A DNA stretch of 53,419 nucleotides from an uncultured Bdellovibrionales bacterium (GTDB taxonomy: Bacteria; Patescibacteriota; Minisyncoccia; Moranbacterales; UBA1568): NCBI GenBank assembly GCA_964543815.1, contig CAZIZG010000001.1, positions 182,265-235,683 on the forward strand, in the 5' to 3' direction. Within the stretch, counting starts at the first letter, position 1; each line of letters opens with the position of its first letter. Shown piece after piece: positions 33,003 through 53,419 of the stretch. The notes below the pieces were generated by a model. That model was given only the letters and a program-made list of their open reading frames with translations. It searched no databases and was not told the origin of the DNA. Both the position numbers and the translations under genes were made by a program.

Positions 33003-33004
33003 AA

Positions 33005-33439: not shown

Positions 33440-33460
33440 ACTTTTAAATTGACTGGTTTA

Positions 33461-33844: not shown

Positions 33845-33853
33845 AGCTTGCTC

Positions 33854-34096: not shown

Positions 34097-34120
34097 ATAT
34101 CTTCACCTCCTTTCGTATAA

Positions 34121-34417
34121 TTATTTATCATACGATTTCACCATCTTGAATACCTGTTCGAGCAATTCCTTCGATATTTTACCTTTCTTTGAATGAGAGA
34201 CGCTCTTTAACTTTTCCTCTATGTAGTTCTGGATGAGTATTCTCTGGGCACTACGCAAGAGTCCGAGAGTAGCGGCATTGATTTGGAGGAGGTCAATGAG
34301 CGGTCTCCCATCCTCGGTCATGGAAAGTGTCTTCCGGATATTACTGGAAGCTTTTTTCAGACTGATACTCAATTTCTTGTCCATATTCGTATCATAGAAA
34401 TTATTCTGGAGAGACAA
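34121..34417 (-). CDS. CsoR/RcnR/FrmR-family-like small helical regulator (divergent)
   Basis: By-eye alignment to RcnR: DKKLSISLKKASSNIRKT..., LLQINAATLGLLRSAQRIL... and a VFKMVKSYDK tail. An alternative ATG at 34384 would remove the overlap with the upstream gene. Confidence 0.5.
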   Translation of the reverse strand: MSLQNNFYDTNMDKKLSISLKKASSNIRKTLSMTEDGRPLIDLLQINAATLGLLRSAQRILIQNYIEEKLKSVSHSKKGKISKELLEQVFKMVKSYDK

Positions 34418-34943: not shown

Positions 34944-34956
34944 AGGCTATGCCTCC

Positions 34957-35787: not shown

Positions 35788-35815
35788 AGCAATAAGTATT
35801 AATTGGTTTTTTAGC

Positions 35816-37447: not shown

Positions 37448-37496
37448 AGAGTTGTATTTATGATTTACGAAACTAATTAATGATTATTTACTTCTC

Positions 37497-38021
37497 TTAG
37501 AGAGTCATGAATGGTGAGAAATCACTCCCGCTTTTCTGGTATATCTCGTAGGGAGCTTGCTTCACGCCAGGCATACCGGGAGTTCCTATCGGCATACCAG
37601 GAAGACCGATGCCGTCGATATTCAGCTTTTCTGAGAGAAGCTTTTCAACGGCGACCAATGGCACATGTCCTTCAATAAAGTAATCTCCAATCACTGTCGT
37701 ATGGCAGCTTTGCTTATCTTCTCCAATACCATATTGCTCCTTAATGGAACCCATGTTCTCGGTGGATTTCACGTCAACCTCATATCCTTGTTTCTTCAAT
37801 TCTGCAACGTAACCGTTGCAACACCCACAATTCGGCGCTTTGTAAACGGTGGCCATTCGCGCTATCGGAACCGCCGCGGTTTCCACGCTGTCGACCGAGA
37901 TAGTACCGGGTTCTGCACTCACTATTTTTTGCTCGGATCTTTCTTGACCGTACCACAAAAAAGATCCAAGTATGGCAGCAGCCCCTATGACCAATAATGA
38001 TTTCCTATACTTCATACTCAT
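37497..38021 (-). CDS. DUF411 (CopG-like) metal-binding protein
   Basis: YKAPNCGCCNGY...CHTTVIGDYFIEGHVP. The start overlaps the copA stop as TAATG. An alternative ATG lies at 38015. Confidence 0.8.
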   Translation of the reverse strand: MSMKYRKSLLVIGAAAILGSFLWYGQERSEQKIVSAEPGTISVDSVETAAVPIARMATVYKAPNCGCCNGYVAELKKQGYEVDVKSTENMGSIKEQYGIGEDKQSCHTTVIGDYFIEGHVPLVAVEKLLSEKLNIDGIGLPGMPIGTPGMPGVKQAPYEIYQKSGSDFSPFMTL

Positions 38022-40969
38022 TATTTGATTTGATTATTTATCGCTGTTACTGGAAGTTCCTTTTCCATATTTTGACTGCTAAACTTTGCGAATTGGAAAA
38101 AGAGCACTGAGAATGCAACTACCATGACAAGCGGCGCTACCAAGGATGCGAAGTTTCTTCTCCCTGGCCGAAAGAAACGGAGAAGGAGCGAATTGCCCAC
38201 GACAGAAATAGATGAGAGGGCCATGGCGAGACCAGCAAGCTCTGGCTTCAAGACCAGCCCAACCCCGGCAAACACTCGAGCCGCTACTGGAATACCCATC
38301 ACATTGTAGAAGAGAGCGAAAAACATATTCTGTTTGATCTTTGACATGCTCTCTTTGGAAAGCTCAATGGCCGTCACCACATCATGCACATCGCTTCGCA
38401 TGAGGACTATATCTCCTGCTTCCATAGCGACATCGGTTCCCGATCCCATGGCTACGCCTAAATCGGCTTGTGCCAACGCTGGGGCGTCATTAATCCCATC
38501 TCCCACCATAGCGACACGCTTCCCTTGTTCCTGAAGGTTCTTGACGTGCAGAGCCTTGTCTTCAGGGAGTACTTCGGCGAACACATTTGTTACACCAACC
38601 TGCGAAGCTATGGCATTGGCCGTCCGTGCATTGTCTCCCGTGATCATATAGACCTCGATTCCCATATTCAGAAGTTTCTTGACAGCATCTCTTGATGATT
38701 CCTTCACGGTATCAGCAACAGCGACCGCACCGAGAACCTTCTCTCTGGTAGCCAAGATCATAGCGGTTTTCCCTTGTTCTTCCAGGCGCATGAGTTTCCG
38801 GTTGATACGATCGAGTGGAAGCTGAATAACATCTGTGATAAGCCTGCGATTCCCAAAAAAGTACTCCGTATCGCCGATAATTCCTTGCACACCATGTCCC
38901 GGAATAGCTTTGAAGTCGCTTACATCTTCCAAGACACAGCCCTCCTCCTTGGAATATTCGTAGATGGCTTCAGCTAAAGGATGTTCGGAAAGCTTTTCCA
39001 AACTGGCGGCTATTTCAAGAACTTCATCTTCATCGGCATCATTGAAGGTAAGGATGTCGGTCACCTCAGGCTTTCCTTTGGTGAGAGTCCCTGTTTTGTC
39101 GAAGATGACGGCATTGATTTTGCAGGCGGCTTCCAACGCTTCACCACCTTTGATGAGAATCCCGTTCTCCGCACCCTTTCCTGTACCGACCATGAGTGCT
39201 GTCGGCGTTGCCAACCCAAGAGCGCATGGACACGCGATCACAATGACAGCGGTAAAGGCCATGAGAGCAAACGCCAAGGTAGCACCCAAGAAAAAGTACC
39301 AGACGACGAAGGTAAGGATAGCAATTCCAATCACGACCGGAACAAACCAGGCAGAAATGCGGTCAGCAAAGTTCTGAATCGGCGCCTTCGAGCCTTGCGC
39401 TTCCTCAATAAGGCGGATGATTTGAGCCAACGCTGTTTCGCTTCCTATCCGAGTCGCTTCAAACTCAAAGCCACCAGTCTTGTTGACCGTTCCACCAATC
39501 ACCATATCGCCTTCGTTCTTTTCGGCCGGGATGCTTTCTCCGGTAATCATGGATTCATCAACCGCCGAAGATCCTTTCGTGATTTTCCCATCGACAGGGA
39601 TCTTCTCGCCGGGACGGACAATAATAATATCTCCATGAACGACTGCATCTACCGGCACATCGAGTGTTTCACCGTTTCGCATCACCCGAGCTGTCTTGGC
39701 CTGGAGGCCCATGAGTTTTTTAATGGCATCAGAAGTTCTTCCCTTGGTTCGTACCTCGAGCCACTTACCCAGAATGACGAAGGTGATCAGAAAGGCGGCT
39801 GTCTCAAAGTAGAGTTCTGGAATTTTTTCTCCATTCTGACCAATCACACTTCCGTTCTGTACCACATACAGAACGAAGTTAATGAGGCTGTAGAAGAAGG
39901 CGGTCGATGTTCCGATGGCAATCAGACTATCCATGTTGAACGTCTTCATCTTGAGAGCAGACCAAGCACCCTTATAGAATCCGGCGCCGATAATGAACTG
40001 GATCGGAATCGTAAAGAGCAGTGAGAAAACTCCGACATACGGCAAGAGCGTCGTTTTCCCAGGGATTGCGAAGAAGTCGAATAGCATGAAGTAGAGCATC
40101 GGGACGCTCATGGTAAAACCGAAAATGAACTTATTGAAGTAGCTACTGATTTCCTTATCGCGTTTGCGCCGTTCATACTCAGTGTCCTTCGGATCGACTT
40201 CTTCCGCTTTATAACCCGCCTGTGCAACCGCCTGCTTCAAGGAAGCGATCTGGATTTTGTTTTCATCGAATGTGACCAATGCCTTTTCAGCAGCGAAATT
40301 CACACTGGCTTGTTTCACGCCTGGCACCTTTTTGAGCGAACGCTCAATCAGATTTGCACAGGACGAACAGTGCATGCCAAACAATGAAAGGCTGATGCGT
40401 TTATTCGAATCGCGTTGAGCCTCTCCCTGCATATCTTTTTGAGAAGCCAGCGCTGTCCCTCGCGCTTGCACCACATCTCTTCCTTGTGAAAGGTTTCCTC
40501 CAATACCCTGAATACTTCCAACGGTCTTCAGAACATGGTTTACCATGTCTTTCAAGGATGTCTTCTCTTCAGGACTCTCTATCTCAGCCGATTGACTGTT
40601 CGAAATAGTGCCCTCAAAATAGGGTTTTCCAGTTGGGTCTTCCAATATTTTTCCTGTAGCCTCTATTCGTGATTCAATCTTTACCTTGAACGGAACATCA
40701 GTCGCTGTTTTCTTTTCCTGTTTCTCTGGTTCCTCTAAGGAGAGAGCCTCTTCATTTGCAAGGAGAGCCTGATAGCCAGCTTTTTCAACGGCCTTCAGAG
40801 TTTCATCAGGAGAGGTTTGAGAGTCATCCAGAAGAAATGTGCCTTGACCCGTTTTATGATCAATCTTGACCTCGCTTACTCCTGGTAGCACGGAAAGCTC
40901 CTCCCCGATGAGTATCTCGCAGGAATGACAGGTCATGCCGCGGATAGATAATGTTATTCGTTTCGTCAT
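38021..40969 (-). CDS. copA: Copper-translocating P1B-1 ATPase with two HMA domains
   Basis: GMTCHSCE and [11 protein letters not shown] motifs, then [17 protein letters not shown] and GDGINDAP. 982 aa. Confidence 0.95.
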
Positions 40970-40993
40970 ACTCGTAGAATAGTCTTGAGAGAA

Positions 40994-41200
40994 TTAGGCA
41001 GCTGAAACGGCATAGTCGGTTCCTTGAAGTGAAGCCTGTACTTCATCGAGAACGATCACTCTTTCTGAGGTGAGAACAGCCTCGCCGTTTTCTTGGAGCG
41101 CGAAGTCTGTCACACCAGCTATCTTTTTGATTTTAAGCGCTATGACCTTGAAGCAGGATCCGCAGTGCATTCCGCTTACTTTGAAATGGAGAGTATTCAT
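40994..41200 (-). CDS. copZ: CopZ-like HMA metallochaperone
   Basis: MNTLHFKVSGMHCGSC..., 68 aa. The track ORF is trimmed to the ATG at 41200 so that it no longer overlaps the upstream gene. Confidence 0.8.
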   Translation of the reverse strand: MNTLHFKVSGMHCGSCFKVIALKIKKIAGVTDFALQENGEAVLTSERVIVLDEVQASLQGTDYAVSAA

Positions 41201-41234
41201 AAGAGATATATTGAGTACGTTCGGATTATTGTCA

Positions 41235-42608
41235 CTAAGAGTTTTTGGCGACCACTGTGAAGTTGCCACGATACATGCCCATAGAACAGGAAAACGGGAT
41301 TTGTCCGACCTCTTTCGGAGTAAATTCAATCACATTTTCGCCTGCCACCAGATTCTTACGAACGCCAAGCTTGGAGGCAATAATAGTGCTCGCGCAGGTA
41401 AACTGATTGGTAGAATTGACTATCCACTTGACCGGAACTCCCGCTTGAACCGTGAACTGGCTTGGGGAGTAACCATCGGCTGCCTGGGTCATACGAACCA
41501 CTTGCACGCCATTTTCAATCTTCACGCTCGGATCAGCAGACTTTACCGCCACTGCCTCCGTTTCAGCAGCTCTCGTCGAACCGAAGTCCCAGCCAGTCAA
41601 GTTCAGGCCGTTATTGACATTAAAGATGGCCAGCAAGATGACTACTATTCCTGCAAACTTGAAGAAACGCTGAGCAAAGATACCCTTGATCACCGAAGTC
41701 AGCCCACCAATTCCGAGAAGTCCAGGTGCCGTTCCGAGGGCAAAGAGTCCCATGATGAGACTGCCTTGTGCAAAGCTTCCTGTGCTCACAGCGTAGATCT
41801 GCATGGCTTGAGTGAAGCCACAGGGCAGGAAAAAGGTCATAGCACCGAGAACGAACGAATTTTTGTGACTGTATTCTCTTTGCTTGTCACTGATGCCCAG
41901 TAATCGACTGATTCCTTTAGGGAGAGCGAAGCTTACTGTTTCCAGTCGTGGACACACACCTGTCAATTTCAAGCCGAGGAGGAGCATAACGATTCCGACA
42001 GCGATAGTGACGACACCCAGGGTGGTGCCGGAAAGTTGGAGGAACGATCCGAGAGAACCGAGGAGACCTCCCAAAACCGCATAGGAAAGAACTCTTCCGG
42101 CATTGAAGAAGAGGTGTGGCCGAAACTTCTGCATCGGAGTAGCTTCCGGATGTTTTTCGGAATGTCTTGCCGATATTCCAAGAATGAGCCCTCCCACGAG
42201 AGCCAGGCACGTGGAAAAACCAGCGGTCAACCCAATAAGGAGAGCGACTGAAAGACTTGTCGGTTTTGCCGCGTTCCCAATGTTCATGAGATCGGATAGG
42301 CCCGTTTCTTTCAGAAGAAAGTAAAGTCCAAGCACGAAAAGAAACGCAATACCGAGATCCTTGTAATCACTCACGTTGCGACTGAACCACGGTTTCTTCC
42401 CTACCACCCCGATCGTATAACCAGCAGAACGTATGGCATCTTCAATCGCTTGCTTGCTTGGTTTTACCTCGTACGAAATCTCAGCGATACCTCTTTTGTA
42501 ATTGACATGACTCTTCTTGATCTCTGGAATTTCAGAAAGTTTATCTTCGATGAGAATCTCACAAGACCGGCAATGCATTCCCGCAATGGGTACAACAAGT
42601 TTTTGCAT
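41235..42608 (-). CDS. Fusion protein: HMA domain + DsbD_2/TauE-like polytopic membrane domain + C-terminal cupredoxin-like domain
   Basis: MQKLVVPIAGMHCRSCE. TM core with FSTC and FFLPCGF. C-terminus YSPSQFTVQAGVPVKW...FSCSMGMYRGNFTV. The start is set at the ATG at 42608. Confidence 0.7.
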   Translation of the reverse strand: MQKLVVPIAGMHCRSCEILIEDKLSEIPEIKKSHVNYKRGIAEISYEVKPSKQAIEDAIRSAGYTIGVVGKKPWFSRNVSDYKDLGIAFLFVLGLYFLLKETGLSDLMNIGNAAKPTSLSVALLIGLTAGFSTCLALVGGLILGISARHSEKHPEATPMQKFRPHLFFNAGRVLSYAVLGGLLGSLGSFLQLSGTTLGVVTIAVGIVMLLLGLKLTGVCPRLETVSFALPKGISRLLGISDKQREYSHKNSFVLGAMTFFLPCGFTQAMQIYAVSTGSFAQGSLIMGLFALGTAPGLLGIGGLTSVIKGIFAQRFFKFAGIVVILLAIFNVNNGLNLTGWDFGSTRAAETEAVAVKSADPSVKIENGVQVVRMTQAADGYSPSQFTVQAGVPVKWIVNSTNQFTCASTIIASKLGVRKNLVAGENVIEFTPKEVGQIPFSCSMGMYRGNFTVVAKNS

Positions 42609-42732
42609 AGGATAGATTTGTTTGAAGACTAAAATCCATTTCTGTGTAGTGAAATGGTTACAAAAAACGCCAGTGAAAGAAGTGAGTATCATCTCAAACG
42701 AGAAAATCACCCTCTCTGGCGTTTCAACAAAT

Positions 42733-43152
42733 CTATTCTTTTTTGGCTACGGAAAGTAGAACCTCTGTGAGAAGAGGTGGTCCAGGAGGCGACGAATTAA
42801 CAAAACCCGACTCGTCAATTGGCAGGTATGCTACCGAATCCCAATGGGTGATTGCTAAAACAGGGAGTTCGCTAGAACCATTTACTTTTTTCACTGTCCC
42901 TGTTTTTGATATTGAGTTTCCACAGGAGATCGTACAACCATTGATGCTCTTCGAGGTTGAGTCACAGGTAGCACAACCAGGATTTACTTGATTGCTCTCC
43001 TCTGTATTCTCGTAGCCCGATGCCCCTCCCATATCTGACATCTGCATATGGGAGGCCGCAGACACCCCCATAGGAAAAGCACAGAAGCCGCTTGCAAAGA
43101 AAGCGAAAGCCGCAATAAAGCCGAAAGAAGCAATTTTCTTTGAAGTTTTCAT
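42733..43152 (-). CDS. Secreted Cys-containing hypothetical protein
   Basis: Signal-peptide-like N-terminus (MKTSKKIASFGFIAAFAFFASG). The mature part carries CATCDS...CTISC. First gene of the minus-strand metal block. Confidence 0.45.
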   Translation of the reverse strand: MKTSKKIASFGFIAAFAFFASGFCAFPMGVSAASHMQMSDMGGASGYENTEESNQVNPGCATCDSTSKSINGCTISCGNSISKTGTVKKVNGSSELPVLAITHWDSVAYLPIDESGFVNSSPPGPPLLTEVLLSVAKKE

Positions 43153-43446
43153 AAACACTTACACTATACTACTTTTTTCCGATTATCTCAAGGGGAAGGA
43201 AATTTATATTTACTCTAAGTGCTCTTCACCATCTGCGTCTTCGTAAACGCCCTAAACACACCCTGAGCGAAGACTGAACCACGTCTCCGTTAGACATTAT
43301 GATGTAAGCCGTACTTTGCTGGCAAGTGTCATAGAGATCTTTGTTTTCCTCAATGGAAGACCCAAATGAGATGAGTCATCTTATTCAGGTGTAGTACAAA
43401 ATGTGAGGGAATGTCAACGCATGGCTATAGTTATCCACCGCCCCGC

Positions 43447-43476
43447 TTGACGGTTCATACATGATCCCCATATACT
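43447..43476 (+). promoter_or_regulatory. Sigma70-like promoter in the 470-nt gap before the ParB-methylase gene
   Basis: TTGACG (43447-43452), an 18-nt spacer, then TATACT (43471-43476). Confidence 0.35.
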
Positions 43477-43558
43477 AGACATACAACTTAGAGATATAAC
43501 TTCTGCAGTCGTCCTCTTCAATTCTCGAAGAGAGACGTAGGTGAACAAGATTTTTCTT

Positions 43559-43626
43559 GGGCGCAGGCAGAGTTACTTGATCGGCTTTTTATAAGCTTGT
43601 CAGCTAACTCCGTCTGCGCCCTTTTT
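43559..43626 (+). terminator. Large hairpin plus T-run just upstream of the ParB-methylase start
   Basis: GGGCGCAGGCAGAG...35 nt...CTCCGTCTGCGCCC. 14 positions with one mismatch and one G-U, followed by TTTTTATTT. Confidence 0.45.
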
Positions 43627-43652
43627 ATTTGTTAATCATTATCCATAACCAT

Positions 43653-44984
43653 ATGGAAAAGAAAGAATTGGAGATCCAGTATCTCCCCATCGCATCTCTC
43701 CGCCCCGCGGAATACAACCCTCGCAAGCACTCGAAAGAGGCACTCGAGGAATTGAAGAAGTCGCTGTCACGTTTCGGTGCCATTGATCCAATCATTCTGA
43801 ACGGTGCTCCGAACCGGATGAATGTCGTTATTGGTGGCCACATGCGCTTGAAGGCGCTCAAAGAATTGGGCGAAAAGAATGTACCGGTGGTCTACATTAA
43901 CCTGCCAGATATTGAGAAGGAAAAAGAATTGAATATCCGGCTTAACAAGAACACTGGTGAGTTTGATTGGGATCTCCTTACTGACTTCGGCGAGAGCTTC
44001 CTCAAAGAGGTTGGCTTCTCTTCTGAAGAGCTCGACGATATCTTTGCGGTTGAAGGAAGTCCGGAAACCTTCGACCTGAAGAAAGAACTCGAGAAACTCG
44101 ATATCAAAGAGATCAACATCAAGAAAGGCGATGTCTACGATTTGGATGGCTCACGCCTCATGTGCGGAGATTCAACCATTGAAGCCGACATGTTAAAGCT
44201 CATGGAAAATGAGAGAGCTGATATGGTGCTGACCGATCCGCCTTACATCCTCGATTATCTACACGGCAAGAAAAAGAACGGCAAGGCGACTGAAGGATTC
44301 GGAGCCAAACGTGATCGTCGTTACCTCGAAACGGATTCCTTGCCGGATAACTTCACCGAGCTTTGGATGGAAAACATTTCAAAGATCGCTAAGCCCGACT
44401 TCCACATCATCGTGTACGAAAACTGGAAGAACATTCGGACGATTTGGGGAGCCATGGAGAAGTACTGGAAAGTGAAGAATATGATCGTATGGCATCTCCC
44501 CAATCGAATGCAGGGATTTGCTGCCAAGTACAAGCTCTTCTCCAAACACGATATCGCTATGGTTGGATCATCGGAAGAAGCACGTGGCTTCAACCTCGCT
44601 CCGGAGGAAGAGCTCCTTCAAAACGAATACGAAACTGCTCTCTATGCCATTCAAGGAAAGCCCCAATGGGAAGGCTATGAGAAAGGAAAAAGAATCTGCC
44701 CAACCGATTTCATCGACTACAAAGCCGCTGATGAGAAATCTTCCGGCCAAGGCATCATCTTCGGTACCAAGCCAATTGAGATCCTTATTCCCTACATCAA
44801 GGTTCTGACCAAGCGGGGCGATCTCATCGTTGAACCCTTCGGCGGTTCAGGCTCCACCCTTATTGCTTCTACGACAATGAATCGAAGGTGCTTCCTCATG
44901 GAGAAATCTCCAGTCTATGCGGAGGTCATAAAGAGGAGATGGGAAAAACTAACCGGTAAGAAAGCTAAGCTCTATGTACGCTAA
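43653..44984 (+). CDS. ParB-like nuclease domain fused to an N6A/N4C DNA methyltransferase
   Basis: ParBc-like segment LRPAEYNPRKH...VIGGHMRL. MTase motif IV VLTDPPY and motif I EPFGGSGST. The track start at 43629 is a TTG, so the ATG at 43653 is preferred. Confidence 0.85.
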   Translation: MEKKELEIQYLPIASLRPAEYNPRKHSKEALEELKKSLSRFGAIDPIILNGAPNRMNVVIGGHMRLKALKELGEKNVPVVYINLPDIEKEKELNIRLNKNTGEFDWDLLTDFGESFLKEVGFSSEELDDIFAVEGSPETFDLKKELEKLDIKEINIKKGDVYDLDGSRLMCGDSTIEADMLKLMENERADMVLTDPPYILDYLHGKKKNGKATEGFGAKRDRRYLETDSLPDNFTELWMENISKIAKPDFHIIVYENWKNIRTIWGAMEKYWKVKNMIVWHLPNRMQGFAAKYKLFSKHDIAMVGSSEEARGFNLAPEEELLQNEYETALYAIQGKPQWEGYEKGKRICPTDFIDYKAADEKSSGQGIIFGTKPIEILIPYIKVLTKRGDLIVEPFGGSGSTLIASTTMNRRCFLMEKSPVYAEVIKRRWEKLTGKKAKLYVR

Positions 44985-45387
44985 ACAACAAGCGTCGATT
45001 GATCGGCGCATGGAAAAGCAAAAGAAAGATATTCTGGAAGCGCTGCAGAAGACGCCAGTGGTTCATGTTGCTTGCGAGCGTTCCGGTGTGAGCAAAGCCA
45101 CCTTCTATCGGTGGAGAGAGAAAGATCCTGCTTTTGAGAAGGGCTCCAATGAAGCACTCAAGGCAGGGAAAGAACTCATCAATGACATGGCAATTTCTCA
45201 GCTCATTTCAGCGATCAAAGACAAGAACTTGGGTGCGATTAAGTTCTGGCTCTCGAACCACCATCCAGACTTCAAGACCAAGGTCGAAATCGGCGGACGG
45301 ATAGAAATGATCGAGGAACTCTCTCCAGAGGAACGGATCATGGTCAGTGAGGCGCTGAAGCTCGCTGGCTTAACCCCAGAGCTATGA
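44974..45387 (+). CDS. Small terminase-like HTH protein
   Basis: ACERSGVSKATFYRWREKDPAFEK is an HTH typical of phage small terminase / phBC6A51-type homeodomain proteins. Overlaps both neighbouring genes. Confidence 0.6.
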   Translation: MYAKQQASIDRRMEKQKKDILEALQKTPVVHVACERSGVSKATFYRWREKDPAFEKGSNEALKAGKELINDMAISQLISAIKDKNLGAIKFWLSNHHPDFKTKVEIGGRIEMIEELSPEERIMVSEALKLAGLTPEL

Positions 45388-46868
45388 GGACTAAACCAAG
45401 AACCTTAGAAGAGATTATCCGTAACCGCAAGGTACGGCGAAAACTTTCTCAGGAGAGCTTCTACATGTTCTTCTATATCTACTTCTCGCACTATGTGAAG
45501 TATGCGACTGCTCCCTTTCAAAAGGAAATGTTCAATCTGCTTGAAGATGAAGCTCATCAGACCCTCGTCTTCGTTGCCTTTCGCGGTTCAGGAAAATCCA
45601 CCATTGTCACCATGGCCTATGTCCTCTGGTCAATCCTGGGTAAGCAGCAGAAAAAGTATGTGGTCATCGCCGGACAAACCCAGTGGCAAGCTCGTCAGCA
45701 TCTTCAGAACATCAAGGCTGAGCTCGAGAGAAATCCTTTACTTCGGAATGATCTTGGACCTTTTCAGGAAGAGAGCGCTGAGTGGGGTTCCTTTTCTTTG
45801 GTCCTCTTGAACTTCGAAGCCAAGATTGCTGCGGCTTCCACCGAGCAGAGTATCCGTGGTACCCGGTATGGTGCGCATCGTCCCGATCTCATCGTCTGCG
45901 ATGACGTGGAAGACTTAGCTTCGGTAAAGACGCTAGAAAGCAGAGACAAGACCTTTCGCTGGTTTACGGGTGAAGTCCTGCCTTCAGGCGATCTCGATAC
46001 GCGGGTGATAGTCGTCGGTAACCTCCTCCATGAAGATTCGCTCATCGTGCGTCTCAAGAAAAGCATCGAAGCTGGAGAACTCACTGGGCTCTTCCGAGAG
46101 TATCCGCTACTGGATGATTCCGGTGTTTCCCTCTGGCCCGGTAAATTCCCTGATGCCGTCTCGATCCAAACCGAGAAGAAAAAGATCGGCAGCCGCAATG
46201 CTTGGATGCGCGAGTACCTGCTTCTCATTATTCCCGAAGACGATCAGGTGGTTCTTGCTGAATGGATTACCTACTACGATGAGATGCCGAGCATAGACGA
46301 TCTTTCCTATCGCTATACGATAGCGGCCATCGATCTCGCCATCTCCGAAAGTACGAGCGCAGACTACACGGCCATACCGGTCGCTCGAGTCTTTGGTTAC
46401 GACAAGAAGATGCGAATCTACATCCTGCCGCATCCGATCAATCAGCGGATCAACTTTCCTCAGCAACTGGAAGTTATCAAGGGTCTGTATCTGGAACATA
46501 ACAAGCGGATCACGTTTTTGGTCGAGATTAATGGCTATCAGAAAGTGATGCTCCAAACACTGGAGAAAGAAGGCTATCCGGTCAAGGGCGTACAGCACAG
46601 CAGCGACAAACGGGTCCGCCTTTCTCTCATCACGCCTCAGCTAAAAAACGGTGTGGTGCTTTTCCCGAGAAATGGAGCAGATATCCTCATCCGGCAACTA
46701 GTGGGGTTTAAGGCAGAAAAACATGACGATTTGGCGGATGCATTTACGATGCTTATTGATTACTGCGTACAGAAAAATGGACGCTCTATGTCAGAAACTC
46801 TTGAAGAATTCGCCCGACTCAATCAACGTATCAAACGCTCTGAGAGTCTGCTCTACAAGCAGTTCTAA
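45384..46868 (+). CDS. Phage terminase large subunit
   Basis: Walker A AFRGSGKST, Walker B LIVCDDVED and a C-terminal RNase-H-like nuclease part (AAIDLAIS...ADYTAI, KHDDLADAF). Confidence 0.85.
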   Translation: MRTKPRTLEEIIRNRKVRRKLSQESFYMFFYIYFSHYVKYATAPFQKEMFNLLEDEAHQTLVFVAFRGSGKSTIVTMAYVLWSILGKQQKKYVVIAGQTQWQARQHLQNIKAELERNPLLRNDLGPFQEESAEWGSFSLVLLNFEAKIAAASTEQSIRGTRYGAHRPDLIVCDDVEDLASVKTLESRDKTFRWFTGEVLPSGDLDTRVIVVGNLLHEDSLIVRLKKSIEAGELTGLFREYPLLDDSGVSLWPGKFPDAVSIQTEKKKIGSRNAWMREYLLLIIPEDDQVVLAEWITYYDEMPSIDDLSYRYTIAAIDLAISESTSADYTAIPVARVFGYDKKMRIYILPHPINQRINFPQQLEVIKGLYLEHNKRITFLVEINGYQKVMLQTLEKEGYPVKGVQHSSDKRVRLSLITPQLKNGVVLFPRNGADILIRQLVGFKAEKHDDLADAFTMLIDYCVQKNGRSMSETLEEFARLNQRIKRSESLLYKQF

Positions 46869-46955
46869 GAAGCTTGTTAGGGACAACTTAGGAAGGTTTT
46901 AAGGGCTTTTTGAGAGGTCTGGACTTGTTTAGGAGTACGCGTCATTGATGTATGT

Positions 46956-48305
46956 ATGGATACCATGCAAATTCAGGGCAATACTACCAGACAACAAATC
47001 CCGGTAAAAGTGAAGTACTGCCTGTACGCCAGAAAAAGCAGCGAGTCAGAGGAACGCCAGGTTCTCTCTATCGACTCACAGATTAAAGAAATGCTTCAGC
47101 TGGCTGACCGTGAAGGGCTTGAGGTCATCACGATGAAGCGCGAATCTCACTCAGCTAAAGAAACTGGGCAACGACCCGTCTTCAACGAAATCGTCGATGA
47201 ACTTCGGGAAGGAAAGTTCAACGGCATCCTCACCTGGGCCCCAGATCGCATCTCGCGTAACGCTGGTGACCTTGGGAAAATTGTCGATCTGATGGATGCC
47301 GGAAAGCTTGCTGAGATCAGGACCTTCAGCCAGGTATTCACAAACAATCCCAATGAGAAGTTTCTCCTGATGATTCTTGGCTCGCAGGCCAAGCTCGAGA
47401 ATGACAACCGGGGGATAAATGTAAAACGTGGACTCAGGACAAGGGTCGAGATGGGGCTCTGGCCCGGAGTCGCACCCCTCGGCTATCTGAATCAAAAACA
47501 CATCGAGAAGAAGTGTCAGATCATTGTTGATCCCGAACGCGCTCCTGTAGTGAAAAAAATGTTCGAGAAGATGGCGTACGAAAAGTGGTCCGGTCGAAAG
47601 ATCTACCACTGGCTCAAGTTTGAGCTCAACTTCAAAAGCACAGGAAATCATCATGTGGCTCTCGGCAATCTCTTCCGCATTCTTCAAAACCCCATCTACT
47701 ACGGCCCCTTCGAGTATCCGAGGGGTTCCGGTAACTGGTATCAGGGAAAGCACGAGCCAATCATCAGCAAAGAGCTTTTTGATAAAGCTCAGGAGCAGTT
47801 AAAACGCGACAAGATCGTCCGCCAAAGTAGAGAGTTTGCCTTTACCAAACTTATGCTATGCGGATTGTGTGGATCAGGCATCTCTGCTGAAGAGAAGTAC
47901 AAGCAACTCAAAGATGGTTCAGTTGTGAAGTACATTTACTATGGCTGTGGACGATCAAAGGATCGCCACTGCAAAAATCCGTACCTCAGGGAAGAAGAGT
48001 TAACTGAACAGCTCATAAAGATCATGGATCAAATCGATCTTAATCAGACTGGGGTGCAACACAAGTTCGAGGAAGAATTGAAAAGGTATAACAAGTTCAA
48101 CCGTGGCGTTCTCGGGATTAGAAATCAAATCAAAGATCATGAGGCCCTTGATCTGCGTACCTATGCAAAGTACATCCTCCGAGATGGAACGAATGAAGAG
48201 AAACGAGAGTTAATGGGATGCTTTAAGTCCCAGATCAAAATAAGGAAGCACATCGTTACTATTGACCAAGAAAAGCCATGGAACCACCCTAGAATTGAGG
48301 ATTGA
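46956..48305 (+). CDS. Large serine recombinase
   Basis: Resolvase catalytic domain YARKSSESEERQVLSIDSQ, a recombinase domain and a Zn-ribbon CGLCGS...YYGCGRSKDRHC. 449 aa. Confidence 0.9.
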   Translation: MDTMQIQGNTTRQQIPVKVKYCLYARKSSESEERQVLSIDSQIKEMLQLADREGLEVITMKRESHSAKETGQRPVFNEIVDELREGKFNGILTWAPDRISRNAGDLGKIVDLMDAGKLAEIRTFSQVFTNNPNEKFLLMILGSQAKLENDNRGINVKRGLRTRVEMGLWPGVAPLGYLNQKHIEKKCQIIVDPERAPVVKKMFEKMAYEKWSGRKIYHWLKFELNFKSTGNHHVALGNLFRILQNPIYYGPFEYPRGSGNWYQGKHEPIISKELFDKAQEQLKRDKIVRQSREFAFTKLMLCGLCGSGISAEEKYKQLKDGSVVKYIYYGCGRSKDRHCKNPYLREEELTEQLIKIMDQIDLNQTGVQHKFEEELKRYNKFNRGVLGIRNQIKDHEALDLRTYAKYILRDGTNEEKRELMGCFKSQIKIRKHIVTIDQEKPWNHPRIED

Positions 48306-48391
48306 TTTTTGTCCCTTAAAAAGCTATAATAGCCGTACAATGTTGCCTAAACTTCTACCCTTAAAAGGTAGAGGCATGGCTCAATAATAGA

Positions 48392-48440
48392 ACCTACGCG
48401 AATAAAAACGGTCTTCCGACCGGCACTTATTCGCGTAGGT
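48392..48440. repeat. Perfect 14-bp inverted repeat built from the ACCTACGCGAA motif
   Basis: ACCTACGCGAATAA (48392-48405) and TTATTCGCGTAGGT (48427-48440), with an inner GGTC-TTCC-GACC hairpin. Confidence 0.85.
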
Positions 48441-48544
48441 CGATAGCTCGAAAGAGTTATCGGGCAGTTTCGAAAGGAATTGTCTGCTTTGGTCGGAGGA
48501 CCATTTTTGTATCTTAAAAATCTCAATCGGATCTTAATCAAAAA

Positions 48545-48555
48545 ACCTACGCGAA
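48545..48555 (+). promoter_or_regulatory. ACCTACGCGAA leader motif, 4 nt upstream of the ATG at 48560
   Basis: AAACCTACGCGAA-acct-ATG. No purine-rich SD is present. Confidence 0.4.
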
Positions 48556-48559
48556 ACCT

Positions 48560-49009
48560 ATGATTAACGACAAAGAATTCAAGGGCTACAACGGGACACT
48601 CATCCTCACAGATACAGGGGTTGTAATAAAACGTGGACTCAAAGGCGTCCTACTTGGAGGCGGTATGCTGCGGGGAGATAAAACCATTCCCTACCGCAGT
48701 ATCGTTGCCGTGCAATTGAAAAAAGCAGGAATGACTGCGGGTTACCTACAGTTAACTCTCAAGGGTGGCTCTGAATCAAAGGGCGGATTGTTTCAATCCA
48801 CAACAGATGAAAATAGTATCAATTTCCATTTCAATAAGAATAAGGACTTTGAAGAGGCGAGGCAGCTGATAGAAGAAAAGATTAGTAGCTCAGAAGGAAC
48901 AGGCAGTACCAATCTAAACAATCTTGAAAAGTTAGCCGAACTGAAAGACAAAGGGATTATTACTCAGGAGGAGTTCGATCAAAAGAAGAAGATGCTCCTT
49001 GGTCTTTAA
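48560..49009 (+). CDS. Bacterial PH-like (DUF4429-like) domain + C-terminal SHOCT domain protein
   Basis: GTLILTDTGVVIKRG...IPYRSIVAVQLKKAGMTAGYLQL, then LEKLAELKDKGIITQEEFDQKKKMLLG. Confidence 0.65.
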   Translation: MINDKEFKGYNGTLILTDTGVVIKRGLKGVLLGGGMLRGDKTIPYRSIVAVQLKKAGMTAGYLQLTLKGGSESKGGLFQSTTDENSINFHFNKNKDFEEARQLIEEKISSSEGTGSTNLNNLEKLAELKDKGIITQEEFDQKKKMLLGL

Positions 49010-49030
49010 TTCTGAAGAATGAGATAAGAA

Positions 49031-49041
49031 ACCTACGCGAA
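49031..49041 (+). promoter_or_regulatory. ACCTACGCGAA leader motif, 4 nt upstream of the ATG at 49046
   Basis: AAACCTACGCGAA-cact-ATG. Same spacing as the copy at 48545. Confidence 0.4.
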
Positions 49042-49045
49042 CACT

Positions 49046-49747
49046 ATGAATCAAGAAACTCAGTCTTTGGGACAGACTCAAAACAACCCCAAGAAGCCCT
49101 GGTACAAGAAATGGTGGGTGATTACTATAGCCATCATTCTCTTCTTTCCGGCGATAGTAGATATCTTCGATGGCCCAGATGAAGAAAGTAAAAGTGAAGT
49201 AACGGTAGTACAGCCCGCTGCCGAAGAAGTGAAGAACGATGCACGGGCCGAAGTAGAGAAAGCTCCGGAGACACCGCCTGCACCCAAGACCGATCAACAG
49301 ATTCTTGAAGAGAAGCTCAGTGGTATGGTCAGTAGCATCGGCGGTAAAGATATGACCTATCGAGGGATGGATATCCAAAAGACTGACGCTGATCGTCCCA
49401 AAGATACGAAAATGGTGACGGTCAAAGTAGACCTGAAAAGCTTCTACAGTAAGAACTCACTTCTCCGAGATACAGGAGAGCTTTCCACATCCATTTTTCA
49501 ATCCGTATACGATGTTCCAAGTATCCAGGCTTATGATGTCATTGTCTGGTACTATGCTGAAACCACGGATCGCTATGGGAATAAGAAAAATGATGTTGTT
49601 CTTACCTACTTTATCGATAAGCCAACTTATGGAAAGATTAATTGGCAAAACTTCGACAAGAAAGCGGCTTGTGATTTCCTAGAGCAGGAAGCGAAGATAT
49701 CCGGCACTATGGATACGGGCTGTAAAACACTCGTGAATATCCAGTAA
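49046..49747 (+). CDS. Membrane-anchored hypothetical protein
   Basis: 233 aa. N-terminal KKWWVITIAIILFFPAIV anchor, acidic/Pro linker and a C-terminal globular part. No family recognised. Confidence 0.5.
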   Translation: MNQETQSLGQTQNNPKKPWYKKWWVITIAIILFFPAIVDIFDGPDEESKSEVTVVQPAAEEVKNDARAEVEKAPETPPAPKTDQQILEEKLSGMVSSIGGKDMTYRGMDIQKTDADRPKDTKMVTVKVDLKSFYSKNSLLRDTGELSTSIFQSVYDVPSIQAYDVIVWYYAETTDRYGNKKNDVVLTYFIDKPTYGKINWQNFDKKAACDFLEQEAKISGTMDTGCKTLVNIQ

Positions 49748-49756
49748 GCAAACTTA

Positions 49757-49784
49757 GTAAAACCGCCAGTGATGGCGGTTTTAC
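49757..49784. terminator. Bidirectional terminator between convergent genes
   Basis: GTAAAACCGCC-AGTGAT-GGCGGTTTTAC, a perfect 11-bp stem. Confidence 0.7.
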
Positions 49785-49825
49785 TATATTGTTAAAGGTA
49801 GTGATTCTTTGGATGCTGAACACCT

Positions 49826-52729
49826 CTATCCAAGACGATATTTCTGCTGTCTCTGCCGGAATGCCTCCGATCCCCCCTCCAGAACTTTAACTGCACGATC
49901 ACGGATAATAGGATTTTCGATCGAACCAGAAATGTACGATATCTCTCCGTTATCTCGATTTGCAATGATAATCTGTTCAGCATCACTATTTATAACTACA
50001 TTGCCATTGTTCGATGCCAAGATAACTTGACGGTATGTCTTTGCCTGTCGGATAGCGCGGACTAACTCATCCATAATAAACTCGTTATCGAGGTGGTCAT
50101 CGTGCGAATCGATAATAATTGGCTTGTCTCCCTGTGCAAGGTAAATTTTGATCAATACTGTTGCTTTCTGTCCAAGAGAAAGTTTAGACAAGGAGGTATT
50201 CTTGTATTGTACTGTGGGTGTCACGGAGAGGTAATCGGCGTACAAGAAGCTATAGAAGTCACCAATACTAATCGCCTTGGAACTTTTGAGCTTATCTTTG
50301 TGTTCCAGGTTAAGCTTGTCCACCTCAGCTACTAAATCCACGATTTTCGTCTCGTCACCTTCAATGACTTCTTTCATGAGAATCAAAAACTTGGCAAAGA
50401 TAGACTCTCCATTTTTACCAGCTACCTCCACTTTTCGGTTATCCATTACATCTTCCGCTGTTTGAAGAAATCTGTCGGAATCGAACTGTATTTTCACTCC
50501 GAAGCTTAGATCAGAAAGCACATCAGCCTTCTCAGACGAGAAAGTAGCAATGATTTCCTCATACTTCTTCTTTTGTAAAATAACTGTCTCGATCAACTTT
50601 TTAAACAGAGTAGTCCGGTCTCCTACTGAGACGCTAAGCGACTGCTCATCTTTTTTAAACTGTTCTGCTTTCGACTTTATAGAGATAATAGCTACCTCAA
50701 GCTCAGCTTTTTTATCAAGTAGCTTCGCATGATCTTTAATGCCCGCCTCAAAACTCGCAAGTTCTCTTTGTGCGACTTCTATATCTTTGACTATTGAGGT
50801 GATCTCGTTTTTAACCTCGACTGTTCTACCCTCCAGTTTCGATTTCTCACCGTAAGCAATAAGATCAAGGGTTTCAGCTATCCCAAGTTTTGTAAGAACC
50901 GTATTGATGGAAGTAAGCTGGCGATTAAATGCTACCAGGTCCGTGTCGATAAAATGCACAGCACTAGCAAGAAGGTTCTTGAGAATCGCGAGGTCCTCCT
51001 TTTTGGCTTTAAGATCGGAAATGATTTTTTGTTTATCCTGCGCGACTTTAATTTTTTCAATACTTTGAGCCTTTGCAAGCTCTTTAATACGTTCCTCGAT
51101 ATCCTTCAACTCAGCTGCCTTTTGCTTCGACTCAAGTTCTATAGATTGGGCGATATCTTTTCCAATTCGCTGTTCCAAAAAAACGATACTCTCATTTTTT
51201 TGAGAGAGACTTTCCTGGGTTTCACTAACGCCTTCAGCTAATTGCTCAAATTCGAAACTTTTTACAGTGTCTTTTATCTGCGGACTTTCAAATACAAGGT
51301 TTTTCACGTATATATCAAGGTCAGAGTCATCACCGATGTATTTTTCTAACTCACCCTGTGCAACATAAACGATGCCACTATCTTGAAAAAATGCGTCATC
51401 GCAAACATCCTTCTCGAAAGCTGAACCATCTTTAAAATCAAGTTTTGTTTTGATTACAGGACTTTGATCAGATATGCGTCGCACGAATGAGTTAGGATCA
51501 TCCGTATGACATCGATCTATGTAACAGTTTGCGATCAGGTCAACGAAGGCAGTCTTTCCTCCGCCCTTACCTCCCGTAACGGCAACTAATCCTGCGTTAA
51601 GCGGAATCTTAGTTTCCTTAATTGAAAGCTCGGTGCCTATCGTTGATTGACTGATACTGAACCCCGCTAGTGTGTATTTACTCTTTAGTGGTGTTGGATC
51701 TTCTTGCTGAATAACAACTCGCTCAGAGGGCTCATAGAGAAGCTGCTTGAGCCCTTCAAATGTCGGGTCTGCTTTTATCCATGCATTTCTGAGCTCACAA
51801 TAGTGTTCGCTGTTCGCACAATCGTGGTCTGCTTTACCACGATGAGCACAGGGGTGCCCAATGTATTTTATTTCGTGGGCATCAGATCCATGCAAGCAAG
51901 GTTTCAGTGTCTTAAACTCATCGATGAACTTCCCTTCGCCTTCCCCATAAGGGGGCCGCCCCAACGCCCACTCTCGTGTTTTTGGGTTTGAAGACAGCAG
52001 AAAATCTGATTTCTGTATCAACACTTTTCTTGTTTGGTGATCTCGTGAATTCCAATCTATACCACTAAGATCCTCATCTGCTACCACGCCCATAAGGTAT
52101 TTTCCTTTAAATTTTGATGGCGCACCCTCCAAAATACTCGTTATCTGACTGTCATCAACAACAGCGCTCATCATGCCAATGTGTATATCAGATCGGTCCT
52201 GAAATTCTTTGTGCTGTGTTTTCAGCTTCGCACCCAAGGTCGTGAGATTGGAGATCTTCAATTTCGCCTTTTCCTCCGGGTCCTGAGGGTTACCCTCGTA
52301 GACAAAATCTATGTCATGCAAAAAGTTTTCCTCAATAGACTTTATTGGTACATCTTCGGCAAAAAGAACATGAAAATTGATGCTACTGTCACCAACGAAT
52401 TTATTGAGACGAAATTCGATATTTGGCAGCACCAGTATTTTTAATATTTTCTCAATTTCGTCGGCTGTGAAGAGTGCCTGCAATTTCGCTGGGTCACCCA
52501 GGTATTCCTCTTTAATTTTCTTATAGCCATCAATAGTGAAGTAATCGGTAATCCCGAGTACCGCAACATCCTTAGCAATGGCAGTTTTGAACAGGCCTTT
52601 GACATACTCATCCCAGTCAGCCGGAAACTGGCTATTCAAATGTGAGGCTGGCGTATGCACATGGAGATCCCACTTGCGCCAGACTGATCCTTTTTGGTAG
52701 GGAAAATTATCACTCATAGGAATACGCAA
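49826..52729 (-). CDS. 967-aa fusion: N-terminal PHP phosphoesterase + Rad50/SMC-like ABC ATPase with a long coiled-coil insert
   Basis: PHP motifs WDLHVHTP, NIEFRL, NFHVLF and HGSDAH. Walker A TGGKGGGKT (aa 384-392, nt 51554-51580). About 450 aa that is largely heptad-like and K/E/L/I-rich. ABC signature LSLGQ (aa 850). Walker B PIIIDSHDD (aa 870-878). Confidence 0.8.
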   Translation of the reverse strand: MRIPMSDNFPYQKGSVWRKWDLHVHTPASHLNSQFPADWDEYVKGLFKTAIAKDVAVLGITDYFTIDGYKKIKEEYLGDPAKLQALFTADEIEKILKILVLPNIEFRLNKFVGDSSINFHVLFAEDVPIKSIEENFLHDIDFVYEGNPQDPEEKAKLKISNLTTLGAKLKTQHKEFQDRSDIHIGMMSAVVDDSQITSILEGAPSKFKGKYLMGVVADEDLSGIDWNSRDHQTRKVLIQKSDFLLSSNPKTREWALGRPPYGEGEGKFIDEFKTLKPCLHGSDAHEIKYIGHPCAHRGKADHDCANSEHYCELRNAWIKADPTFEGLKQLLYEPSERVVIQQEDPTPLKSKYTLAGFSISQSTIGTELSIKETKIPLNAGLVAVTGGKGGGKTAFVDLIANCYIDRCHTDDPNSFVRRISDQSPVIKTKLDFKDGSAFEKDVCDDAFFQDSGIVYVAQGELEKYIGDDSDLDIYVKNLVFESPQIKDTVKSFEFEQLAEGVSETQESLSQKNESIVFLEQRIGKDIAQSIELESKQKAAELKDIEERIKELAKAQSIEKIKVAQDKQKIISDLKAKKEDLAILKNLLASAVHFIDTDLVAFNRQLTSINTVLTKLGIAETLDLIAYGEKSKLEGRTVEVKNEITSIVKDIEVAQRELASFEAGIKDHAKLLDKKAELEVAIISIKSKAEQFKKDEQSLSVSVGDRTTLFKKLIETVILQKKKYEEIIATFSSEKADVLSDLSFGVKIQFDSDRFLQTAEDVMDNRKVEVAGKNGESIFAKFLILMKEVIEGDETKIVDLVAEVDKLNLEHKDKLKSSKAISIGDFYSFLYADYLSVTPTVQYKNTSLSKLSLGQKATVLIKIYLAQGDKPIIIDSHDDHLDNEFIMDELVRAIRQAKTYRQVILASNNGNVVINSDAEQIIIANRDNGEISYISGSIENPIIRDRAVKVLEGGSEAFRQRQQKYRLG

Positions 52730-52794
52730 GTGTACTACGAAATGTGGAGAAAATCCATCTCCTTAAATACTTCCTTTTTGAGCTATCAACAGTC

Positions 52795-53301
52795 CTATCG
52801 GAACTGCACTGGAGGTACATTTGCTAGAATTTCTCTTGAGAGCGCAAATGTCCTCTCTATTAGAGCCTGGTCCATGCCAGATTTTTTATCGTCTTCGTAG
52901 AGCTTGCTGAGATGCTCGTCCCAGTAATCCCTGGTATCCATTATGAGCGCCCACAACTGCTTCAGTTCTTCATCCGTTTCTTGGTTGATGACACCTCTTG
53001 CAGAATACATCCAAATTGAAAGCGCAGCCGCTTCTGTGTTACTGCCTCTTTTCCGTAAAGTTTTGACTGCGTCCTGTAAAGGCGGCAGCATGAAATAACT
53101 CACATCAGAAGAGAGGCTAGGCTGTCCATCGGGTAGTTTAAAATGACCTTCGTTCTGAAGTCCTGCTCTAGTCCAAGTGCTGTATACAAAGTAATCAGCA
53201 AGCTGTCTTTTTTCTAACGGTCGATATAGTTCGACCAATGCCCTGATGTCATCTTGATAACTCGCGACCGCATGCCTGTGAATGAAGCTAAATATGCCCA
53301 T
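52795..53301 (-). CDS. Hypothetical 168-aa protein, upstream partner of the PHP-ATPase
   Basis: Co-oriented with a 65-nt gap to the ATPase gene. Composition looks helical. No motif recognised. Confidence 0.5.
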   Translation of the reverse strand: MGIFSFIHRHAVASYQDDIRALVELYRPLEKRQLADYFVYSTWTRAGLQNEGHFKLPDGQPSLSSDVSYFMLPPLQDAVKTLRKRGSNTEAAALSIWMYSARGVINQETDEELKQLWALIMDTRDYWDEHLSKLYEDDKKSGMDQALIERTFALSREILANVPPVQFR

Positions 53302-53367
53302 ATGACTAAAAAATGACTTAATGCTCGAAATGAGGCACTCGGGTCATCCGATACTCAATACTCAGTG

Positions 53368-53419
53368 CGGAGAGGGAGAGATTCGAACTCTCGAGGGTTT
53401 TAACGCCCCGCCACGTTAG
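53368..53419 (-). tRNA. tRNA-Ser (probably anticodon GCU), 3' portion; the 5' part lies outside the window
   Basis: Minus strand: T-arm GAGAG-TTCGAAT-CTCTC, acceptor 3' strand CCTCTCC plus discriminator G, and a long variable arm. The anticodon loop ends ...CUAA, so the anticodon is NCU. CCA is not encoded. Confidence 0.8.

Follow-up and report, generated by a model that had tools for sequence, protein, structure and literature searches.

The window analyzed here, i.e., the whole stretch of 53,419 nucleotides from an uncultured Bdellovibrionales bacterium, carries at 49826..52717 on the minus strand the gene of a 963-residue protein which, by its profile match, belongs to the TrlF family, a family catalogued before, and joins a PHP nuclease-like domain to an SMC/Rad50-like ATP-binding cassette (ABC) ATPase. 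The gene lies in the tRNA-proximal part of a 23.2-kb integrative element, directly next to a gene for a 168-residue protein. Taken as a whole, these data are probably best explained by a stand-alone TrlF protein that resembles the defense protein Ppl, travels as cargo of the element and has a defense role—by analogy most likely the protection of host and element from phages or from rival mobile DNA. The architecture itself is already known; what is new, judged by sequence comparison, is a member of a catalogued family within a clade that bears an altered ATPase site.

Family assignment and domain architecture

The large open reading frame (ORF) spans 49826..52729 on the minus strand and encodes 967 residues from a TTG codon; an ATG at 52717, four codons in, yields 963 residues and is the start in the public gene call and in all homologues. 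Residue numbers of sequence motifs refer to the 967-residue version and those of domains and metal ligands to the 963-residue version. The ORF of the 168-residue protein (52795..53301) lies upstream on the same strand, separated by a gap of 65 nucleotides. Both ORFs were given correctly, with strand and coordinates, in a preliminary description of the window, and all motifs quoted there are present—the only slip being the Walker A lysine, which is K392 and not K391.

The NCBIfam model NF045780 ("TrlF family AAA-like ATPase") matches residues 13–965 of the protein over model positions 1–944 of 944, with 503.3 bits (E 2.2e-150) against a curated whole-protein cut-off of 350 bits. NCBIfam matches to Spaf_1101 and Ppl are far weaker. 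PADLOC returns Ppl and two weak PDC candidates for this protein and nothing else, and Pfam returns AAA_23 alone, with 29.4 bits. The preliminary description had proposed profile searches for both proteins and had not recognized the pair as a named system. For the large protein, this statement has to be revised: it scores above the cut-off of the curated TrlF model in NCBIfam, and it is distantly related to Ppl, a single-gene defense that already has a name. The 168-residue protein, on the other side, stayed unmatched in these searches. As to where the name "TrlF" comes from, a literature search returned nothing relevant.

More than 2,800 homologues of the large protein were found. An AlphaFold2 model based on 80 of them has a mean predicted local distance difference test (pLDDT) of 88.8 and a predicted template modeling score of 0.73. 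In Foldseek comparisons with the PDB, this model matches MukB, Smc, Wadjet JetC, Rad50, RecN, a chain of the Lamassu complex, and RecF with a probability of 1.0 and a best E of 6e-10; in the viral library, phage Rad50/gp46-like proteins rank first. Sequence searches for solved structures, with the single protein and with a 17-sequence profile, gave no meaningful PDB match. The order of parts—PHP domain, N-terminal ABC half-head, coiled coil, C-terminal ABC half-head—is the same across TrlF. Sequence profiles and the predicted structure support the view that one polypeptide combines a PHP phosphoesterase in cis with an SMC/Rad50-type ABC head and a hook-less coiled coil. Such a fusion had been proposed in the preliminary description and is borne out by a profile–profile probability of 99.8% in hhalign and by the Foldseek probability of 1.0 for head and coiled coil. 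The motif residues quoted there are invariant or nearly so across the 80 homologues, and these motifs are therefore not a matter of chance.

The PHP domain and its Cys/His cluster

The PHP domain comprises residues ~10–333 (51719..52690, minus strand) and was assigned by hhalign to TrlF proteins in which Pfam detects PHP. Its motifs are HVH (23–25), NIEFRL (103–108), NFHVLF (118–123), and HGSDAH (280–285), and the candidate metal ligands are H19, H21, E101, H116, D279, and H281. Among the 80 aligned sequences, H21, E101, H116, and D279 are invariant, and H19 and H281 are conserved to at least 90%. The comparison rests on a TrlF subfamily found beside the same 168-residue gene in a sister element (locus L009), whose PHP domain is detectable by Pfam. 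Between the clade of the window protein—the window clade—and this L009-type, hhalign gives a probability of 99.8% and an E of 6.7e-30 over 805 columns, with DLHIH/DLHIH, GITDY/AITDH, NIEFR/GVELS, NFHV/GHLL, and HGSDAH/NSDAH in register. In a five-way alignment including Escherichia coli Ppl, D17, H21, E101, H116, S278, D279, and H281 are invariant. The PHP domain of the window protein also contains a helical insert of ~80 residues.

A cluster of conserved residues, C274, C290, H298, C300, and C307 (51797..51898, minus strand; the stretch 276–311 in the numbering of the motifs, nucleotides 51797–51904), follows the DAH motif. The Cys/His-rich knuckle noted at this place in the preliminary description is thus confirmed, and it is clade specific: the cluster is invariant in the 80 homologues, and 112 of 120 window-type proteins have it, but it occurs in none of 120 L009-type TrlF proteins and not in Ppl. 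The conservation pattern suggests that it is probably a zinc knuckle, i.e., that these residues would bind metal.

The ABC head and the coiled coil

The N-terminal half of the ABC head (51278..51718, minus strand), recognized by its motifs, by Foldseek, and by Pfam AAA_23, contains the Walker A motif GGKGGGKT (residues 386–393, nucleotides 51551–51574) and the Q-loop. The AlphaFold2 secondary structure then predicts an antiparallel coiled-coil arm (residues 485–728 in the numbering of the domains; 50534..51265, minus strand) with ~120 residues per strand and a short apex loop, over which the Foldseek matches to SMC, MukB, JetC, and Rad50 extend. There is no cysteine in residues 485–728 and hence no CxxC zinc hook; this absence had been noted before. 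The region is predicted to form long antiparallel helices. The C-terminal half of the head (49829..50509, minus strand), delineated by motifs, alignments, and a census of family members, bears the signature LSLGQ (residues 850–854, nucleotides 50168–50182), the Walker B motif IIIDSHDD (residues 871–878, nucleotides 50096–50119, or 50096–50122 including the preceding proline), and SNN at the H-loop position, within nucleotides 50000–50023.

In this half, the window clade departs from other TrlF proteins and from Ppl. The Walker B motif reads DSHD in 120 of 120 window-type proteins versus DQPE in 120 of 120 L009-type proteins, and the H-loop position reads SNN in 119 of 120 versus THN in 120 of 120; in Ppl, the two motifs are DQPE and SHS. 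At genome loci retrieved with the clade profile, down to 38% identity, DSHD and SNN occur together in all 27 that could be scored. The canonical catalytic residues of most TrlF members—DQPE and the H-loop histidine—are therefore not encountered in the window clade, and the NF045780 model makes no demand for them. Walker A, Q-loop, signature motif, and D-loop are intact; Walker A, signature, Walker B aspartate, and D-loop are also common to the window protein and E. coli Ppl in the five-way alignment.

In ABC ATPases generally, the Walker B glutamate acts as the catalytic base and the H-loop histidine as a linchpin. Because the former is replaced by aspartate and the latter by asparagine while the other motifs are intact, we infer that the head of the window clade would bind nucleotide and engage, with slow hydrolysis—it might be a switch rather than a motor. 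The comparison in any case flags a large TrlF clade, spread over many phyla including the candidate phyla radiation (CPR), that combines an altered ATPase site with a Cys/His knuckle.

Relation to known systems and proposed function

The likeness to other TrlF proteins (e.g., WP_252836616 from a Burkholderia glumae plasmid and WP_000678689 from an E. coli IncF plasmid) lies in the full-length match above cut-off, the order of parts, and the occurrence as a solitary gene on mobile elements. The window clade differs by having DSHD for DQPE and SNN for THN, and adds the knuckle after the DAH motif and the helical insert in the PHP domain; the window protein is 22–33% identical to plasmid and L009-type members.

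Ppl was reportedly introduced as a single-gene anti-phage system by Gao et al. in 2020. Like the window protein, Ppl (NF042955, PDLC02208; E. coli WP_015059139) bears PHP and an ABC-type ATPase in one polypeptide, shares the HxH, E, H, and DxH ligands as well as Walker A, signature, Walker B aspartate, and D-loop, and is encoded by a solitary gene on plasmids, with no conserved partner gene across loci. It keeps the catalytic glutamate and the H-loop histidine and has no knuckle, whereas the window protein shows the reverse. Ppl, a defense whose single gene encodes both a PHP and an ATPase domain, restricts phages (PMC11482910). In a review from 2026, it is described as a single-stranded DNA 3′–5′ exonuclease that is inhibited by nucleoside triphosphates bound to both domains and is activated by nucleotide depletion together with 3′-OH ends (PMC12904381). 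Our literature search did not find the primary paper for this mechanism, which is given here as the statement of the review.

If TrlF works as E. coli Ppl does, nucleotide bound to the head—and possibly also to the PHP site—would keep a homodimer inactive. Infection-linked cues, namely depletion of the nucleotide pool and free 3′-OH DNA ends, would then release the PHP 3′–5′ exonuclease onto DNA. In the window clade, the head would mainly be a slowly hydrolyzing switch that binds nucleotide, and the nucleotide-sensing model of Ppl could usefully be compared with this clade.

A role in defense or against mobile elements, as had been suggested for the window locus, is plausible from the genomic context as well: the gene is cargo of a mobile element, and relatives lie beside known defense genes. 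Type I restriction–modification (R-M) systems adjoin clade members in L015, L018, L035, and the P0006 locus; in L023 and L028, the adjoining R-M system is of type III. Other neighbors are Wadjet JetA/JetB (L027), a TIR-TM gene (L063), a Mokosh-like helicase (L026), mad8/HerA-like genes with PD-(D/E)XK (L017, L020), and Vsr-Dcm (L061). Matches occur in 1142 plasmid records, 129 of them full length, and the listed full-length matches bear the PGAP name "TrlF family AAA-like ATPase." TrlF was also found on 18 IMG/VR contigs. The distribution across phyla is patchy, with 50–60% identity among members from Bdellovibrionales, CPR, Planctomycetota, and Chloroflexota.

Of the 1142 matching plasmids, 825 are conjugative. 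Together with the position of the gene at the end of an integrative element and the presence of anti-plasmid Wadjet JetC among the structural relatives, this might point to competition between mobile elements, i.e., to a Wadjet-like exclusion of rival plasmids, integrative and conjugative elements, or satellites, or to the destruction of their DNA ends. However, Ppl as the only tested relative restricts phages (PMC11482910), and neither kleisin/KITE-type partners nor a Toprim nuclease as in Wadjet are present. Competition as the principal role hence appears unlikely, although it overlaps with the defense explanation and the sequence cannot separate the two. The likeness to Wadjet JetC and Lamassu LmuB themselves concerns the SMC-like head and coiled coil (9qxx, 8dk2, and 9uxh are among the top matches) and the association with defense. 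The window protein has no PADLOC match to either and no kleisin/KITE partners or separate effector, its nuclease being encoded in cis. Neither the large nor the 168-residue protein matches any Wadjet, Lamassu, Gabija, Septu, or PARIS model of PADLOC.

With Rad50/SbcC–Mre11/SbcD, the window protein shares the split ABC head, the antiparallel coiled coil, and the coupling to a metal-dependent phosphoesterase. This raises the question of whether it is a DNA-repair or recombination enzyme—an analogue of SbcCD/Rad50–Mre11 or RecN with PHP in place of Mre11—that serves host or element. By fold, the nearest proteins are indeed the heads of SMC, Rad50, RecN, and RecF, along with phage Rad50/gp46-like proteins. 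Homologues carry the annotation "DNA repair protein" or "RecN" in some sources, and PHP is a proofreading or repair exonuclease in PolX and PolC, as cited in 10.1101/2025.09.30.679545. Yet the PHP nuclease sits in cis, unlike Mre11, which is a separate calcineurin-like protein; compared with Rad50, the coiled coil is far shorter and has no zinc hook. A Mre11/SbcD partner was not found either: the flanking 168- and 233-residue proteins have no Pfam match, no partner recurs across loci, and there is no calcineurin-like gene among the upstream neighbors scanned with Pfam. Moreover, the gene lies on a horizontally transferred island and in no core context, is swapped or lost among sister elements, is abundant on plasmids, is patchily distributed with its 50–60% identity across phyla, and neighbors R-M, Wadjet, and TIR genes rather than repair genes. 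A repair function is on these grounds very unlikely.

Several observations weigh against the proposed Ppl-like defense role. The match to the NCBIfam Ppl model NF042955 amounts to 80.9 bits in two stretches, with an equivalog cut-off of 1000, and that to the PADLOC model PDLC02208 to 63.3 bits over the C-terminal ~170 residues only (best stretch 795–962). The mechanism is borrowed from a protein of ~19% identity, and the effects of the aspartate and asparagine substitutions are read from the sequence. The Pfam PHP model PF02811 stays below threshold on the window clade, because of the helical insert in the PHP domain. Likewise, the Foldseek lists for PDB and viral proteins contain SMC/Rad50-like ATPases throughout, and the PHP fold is not visible there because the ATPase part dominates them. 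Of the two folds that the preliminary description had proposed to check by structure prediction, the Rad50-like head was thus recovered, whereas the PHP fold was not seen and is supported by profile–profile comparison. Finally, several loci are not obviously defense islands, with a copper ATPase lying upstream in five loci from Chloroflexota, and a literature search found no experimental paper on TrlF. If the defense reading is true, the window would add another Ppl-like nuclease–ATPase as mobile cargo, carried by a copper-resistance island that moves via tRNA-Ser sites.

The 168-residue protein

The element's terminal gene (52795..53301, minus strand) encodes an all-helical protein of an uncharacterized family. 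It matches nothing in Pfam, NCBIfam, or PADLOC, which agrees with its earlier description as a small, probably helical protein of unknown family. Its AlphaFold2 model is of low confidence (pLDDT 58.7), and the best Foldseek hit has an E of 0.18. Pfam scans of 10 further family members gave no domain over the shared region, only fused extras, and a single sub-threshold match to EST1. At 50% identity, the family falls into 42 clusters, of which 35 have an E of at most 1e-10; sequence collections were scanned with a narrow alignment of the family, as the broad one has no conserved stretch.

The preliminary description had combined both genes into a two-gene cassette. As an obligate two-component system, the 168-residue protein would be a sensor, an antitoxin-like inhibitor, or an adaptor of the nuclease–ATPase. 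The two genes share their orientation across a gap of 65 nucleotides that contains no terminator-like site, and a 168-residue gene of 83–100% identity precedes two very different TrlF alleles and, in L013, a remnant of one of them. Fusions of distant family members to other domains, and neighbors such as DUF2779 and Metallophos–STAND proteins, additionally hint that the family could be a regulatory module used in conflict systems. The distribution of the two families, however, points in the other direction. The profile of the 168-residue family matches no ORF in 33 other TrlF/Ppl loci, its sole match among the 34 loci searched being the window's own DNA (L014), and none in 18 viral-contig TrlF loci (IMG/VR). 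Conversely, TrlF is encoded in 0 of 12 other metagenome loci that carry the 168-residue family. No neighbor family recurs across all of 24 TrlF loci compared, among which the 168-residue protein clusters only with its L009 counterpart. The nearest TrlF relatives (71–78% identity) have unrelated neighbors, the plasmid TrlF and Ppl genes are solitary, and one sister element (L012) retains the 168-residue gene and has no ATPase. In addition, the stop codon of the small gene is the exact point at which homology between sister elements breaks off; the gene therefore belongs to the backbone of the element and not to the swapped cassette.

The adjacency of the two families is hence confined to one element lineage, and an obligate two-component system is improbable. 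The pair is not conserved as neighbors in other genomes, an outcome which the preliminary description had itself named as speaking against its proposal. These locus comparisons show single-gene status for the TrlF-family protein. By its distribution, the 168-residue gene is a conserved gene at the end of these elements and no general partner of TrlF; its annotation as part of a TrlF system is not warranted. The small protein may be an element-maintenance or regulatory factor, and its gene may be co-transcribed with TrlF. A recombination directionality factor was considered as well: the position of the gene at the attachment (att) junction fits this function, but distant family members are found in unrelated contexts.

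Some distant members of the family (P0247/L043, P0274, P0252/L050) are fused to extra domains, namely a Zeta-toxin-like P-loop (E 1e-4 to 4e-4, below the Pfam threshold), a receiver domain, and a treble-clef zinc finger (below threshold). A 1009-residue Metallophos + STAND-NTPase protein is encoded upstream of another distant member (L051, 1606–4635), and a further one adjoins a DUF2779 protein. In L041, which carries the core genes NUDIX, DprA, and TopA, an element terminus lies at one place and the first 99 nucleotides of the 168-residue gene are joined to an unrelated 202-residue ORF (P0126) 5 kb away (features at 11–72 and 5107–5205); this arrangement looks like a recombination scar.

Cassette exchange between sister elements

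In comparison with the sister element in L009, DNA identity is 83% through the 168-residue gene and ends exactly at its stop codon (52795). Homology resumes at 49793, at a hairpin with a 14-bp stem (49755..49786), and continues with 80% identity. This hairpin marks the downstream edge of the swapped cassette, lies between the convergent genes of the 233-residue protein and TrlF, and is a candidate bidirectional terminator; a T-rich tail is found on its plus-strand copy only. Between the two breakpoints, L009 encodes a TrlF protein of 900 residues that is 24% identical to that of the window. L013 retains a 144-residue remnant of an L009-type TrlF behind the 168-residue gene, and L012 keeps this gene without any TrlF or other ATPase. 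The 168-residue gene is kept in every element variant.

Two distant TrlF alleles have thus been exchanged as a clean cassette at one locus. Precise replacement of genes at one slot is typical of defense hot spots, and the pattern, as read from the alignments, fits a variable defense slot within a conserved backbone. Since the 168-residue gene precedes two different TrlF alleles in one element lineage, a lineage-specific link of the small protein to TrlF-type enzymes was also considered, with little likelihood given to it. A more far-reaching combination would make the DSHD/SNN/knuckle clade a mechanistically distinct Ppl-like branch, whose head would be purely a nucleotide sensor, and the 168-residue protein its dedicated modulator. 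The latter could be an inhibitor or trigger adaptor that serves very different TrlF alleles, which would explain why two TrlF genes of 24% identity occupy one slot behind it. This joint proposal is to be rated lower still and appears quite unlikely.

The integrative element

The element spans 30146..53370 (23.2 kb), as defined by its junctions, its gene content, and a copy in a second host. The core CCGCAC is found at the tRNA-proximal junction (53365..53370, minus strand), located by alignments of sister elements from four different sites, and at the distal junction (30146..30151, minus strand), located by the point at which the second-host copy diverges. With these junctions at both ends, the TrlF cassette sits at the end of the 23.2-kb element, so that the position at the end of an accessory island, as given in the preliminary description, can be narrowed to the tRNA-proximal end of an integrative element. 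In five aligned loci, homology starts exactly at ...CCGCAC|TGAGTATTGAGTATCGG..., which is the 3′ end of the tRNA; the sites include the tRNA-Ser isoacceptors GCT (in two versions), CGA, and TGA, and one non-tRNA site. The distal junction reads ...CCCGCAC|CAATAAAAATACAGTACCCCGGTGGGGTGCTGTATTTTTTT and is followed by a terminator-like hairpin that would be the displaced terminator of the tRNA.

In the window, the tRNA-Ser(GCT) is cut by the edge: only the last 53 nucleotides of the tRNA (53367..53419, minus strand) lie inside, which is why ARAGORN and Rfam report no tRNA in the window. The tRNA is complete on the longer contig L001 of identical DNA (7848–7935), where it ends 65 nucleotides before the 168-residue gene, in agreement with the adjacency to tRNA-Ser claimed earlier. 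The AT-richness that had been estimated by eye proved real though modest, with a GC content of 42.5% in 49826–53365 versus 46.5–46.7% elsewhere in the window.

The copy in the second host background is 99.98% identical from 47447 down to ~30146 (30143–30146; 17.3 kb) and then diverges; its tRNA-proximal 8.6 kb are 99.85% identical. The occurrence of element copies in two host backgrounds amounts to transfer between hosts. A large serine recombinase of 449 residues (46956..48305, plus strand; Pfam Resolvase, Recombinase, and Zn_ribbon_recom) is presumably the integrase of the element, and the gene lists of L057 and L058 contain no further recombinase. To our knowledge, serine-recombinase elements at tRNA 3′ ends are unusual. 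A long att duplication was looked for and discarded: the 3′ end of the tRNA occurs only once in the window, and the junctions share CCGCAC only.

The cargo at 30–43 kb comprises two P-type copper ATPases, a multicopper oxidase, and DsbD-like and DsbA-like proteins, i.e., copper resistance. Further genes and features of the element are a ParB_N-methylase, a 137-residue gene, a TerL-like gene, a LOOT RNA, SHOCT, the 233-residue gene, TrlF, and the 168-residue gene. In five Chloroflexota loci (L029–L032, L036), an HMA-P-type copper ATPase lies directly upstream of TrlF (~2764–5211 in L029). As this echoes the copper cargo of the window element, TrlF may travel with metal-resistance islands.

The "phage-derived module" of the preliminary description is real in that it contains the TerL-like gene, the ParB_N-methylase, and the large serine recombinase. 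The block at 43629–46868 (plus strand), with a ParB_N-N6/N4 methylase, the 137-residue gene, and the TerL-like gene (phrog_38, E 2.8e-86), immediately precedes the recombinase, and the element lacks genes for capsid, portal, and tail. This block could represent what is left of a prophage, or a satellite-like module for packaging. The window as a whole is no prophage, given ThyA, LigA, ClpB, and other genes left of ~30.1 kb and the copper-resistance cargo.

A degenerate copy of "tRNA 3′ end + element terminus" is located at 29854–29954, ~200–300 nucleotides past the distal junction, and a similar one in the other host (L057, 19854–19958), 2.6 kb past the junction. Earlier insertions into this same site may have left these copies behind. 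A LOOT RNA (Rfam RF03000; 48344–48484, plus strand) scores 63 bits, above the gathering score of 46, and is located between the serine recombinase and SHOCT/DUF4429 genes, in the same position as in L009 (5197–5337). The motif AACCTACGCGAA occurs inside this RNA at 48380–48402 and again at 48533–48555 and 49026–49056; copies directly precede the start codons at 48560 (SHOCT gene) and 49046 (233-residue gene). The repetition suggests a shared leader or regulatory element. Outside of the element, at 17537–18348, two adjacent paralogues of ~123 residues form a tandem duplication of 445–448 nucleotides with 75% identity; they appear unrelated to TrlF.

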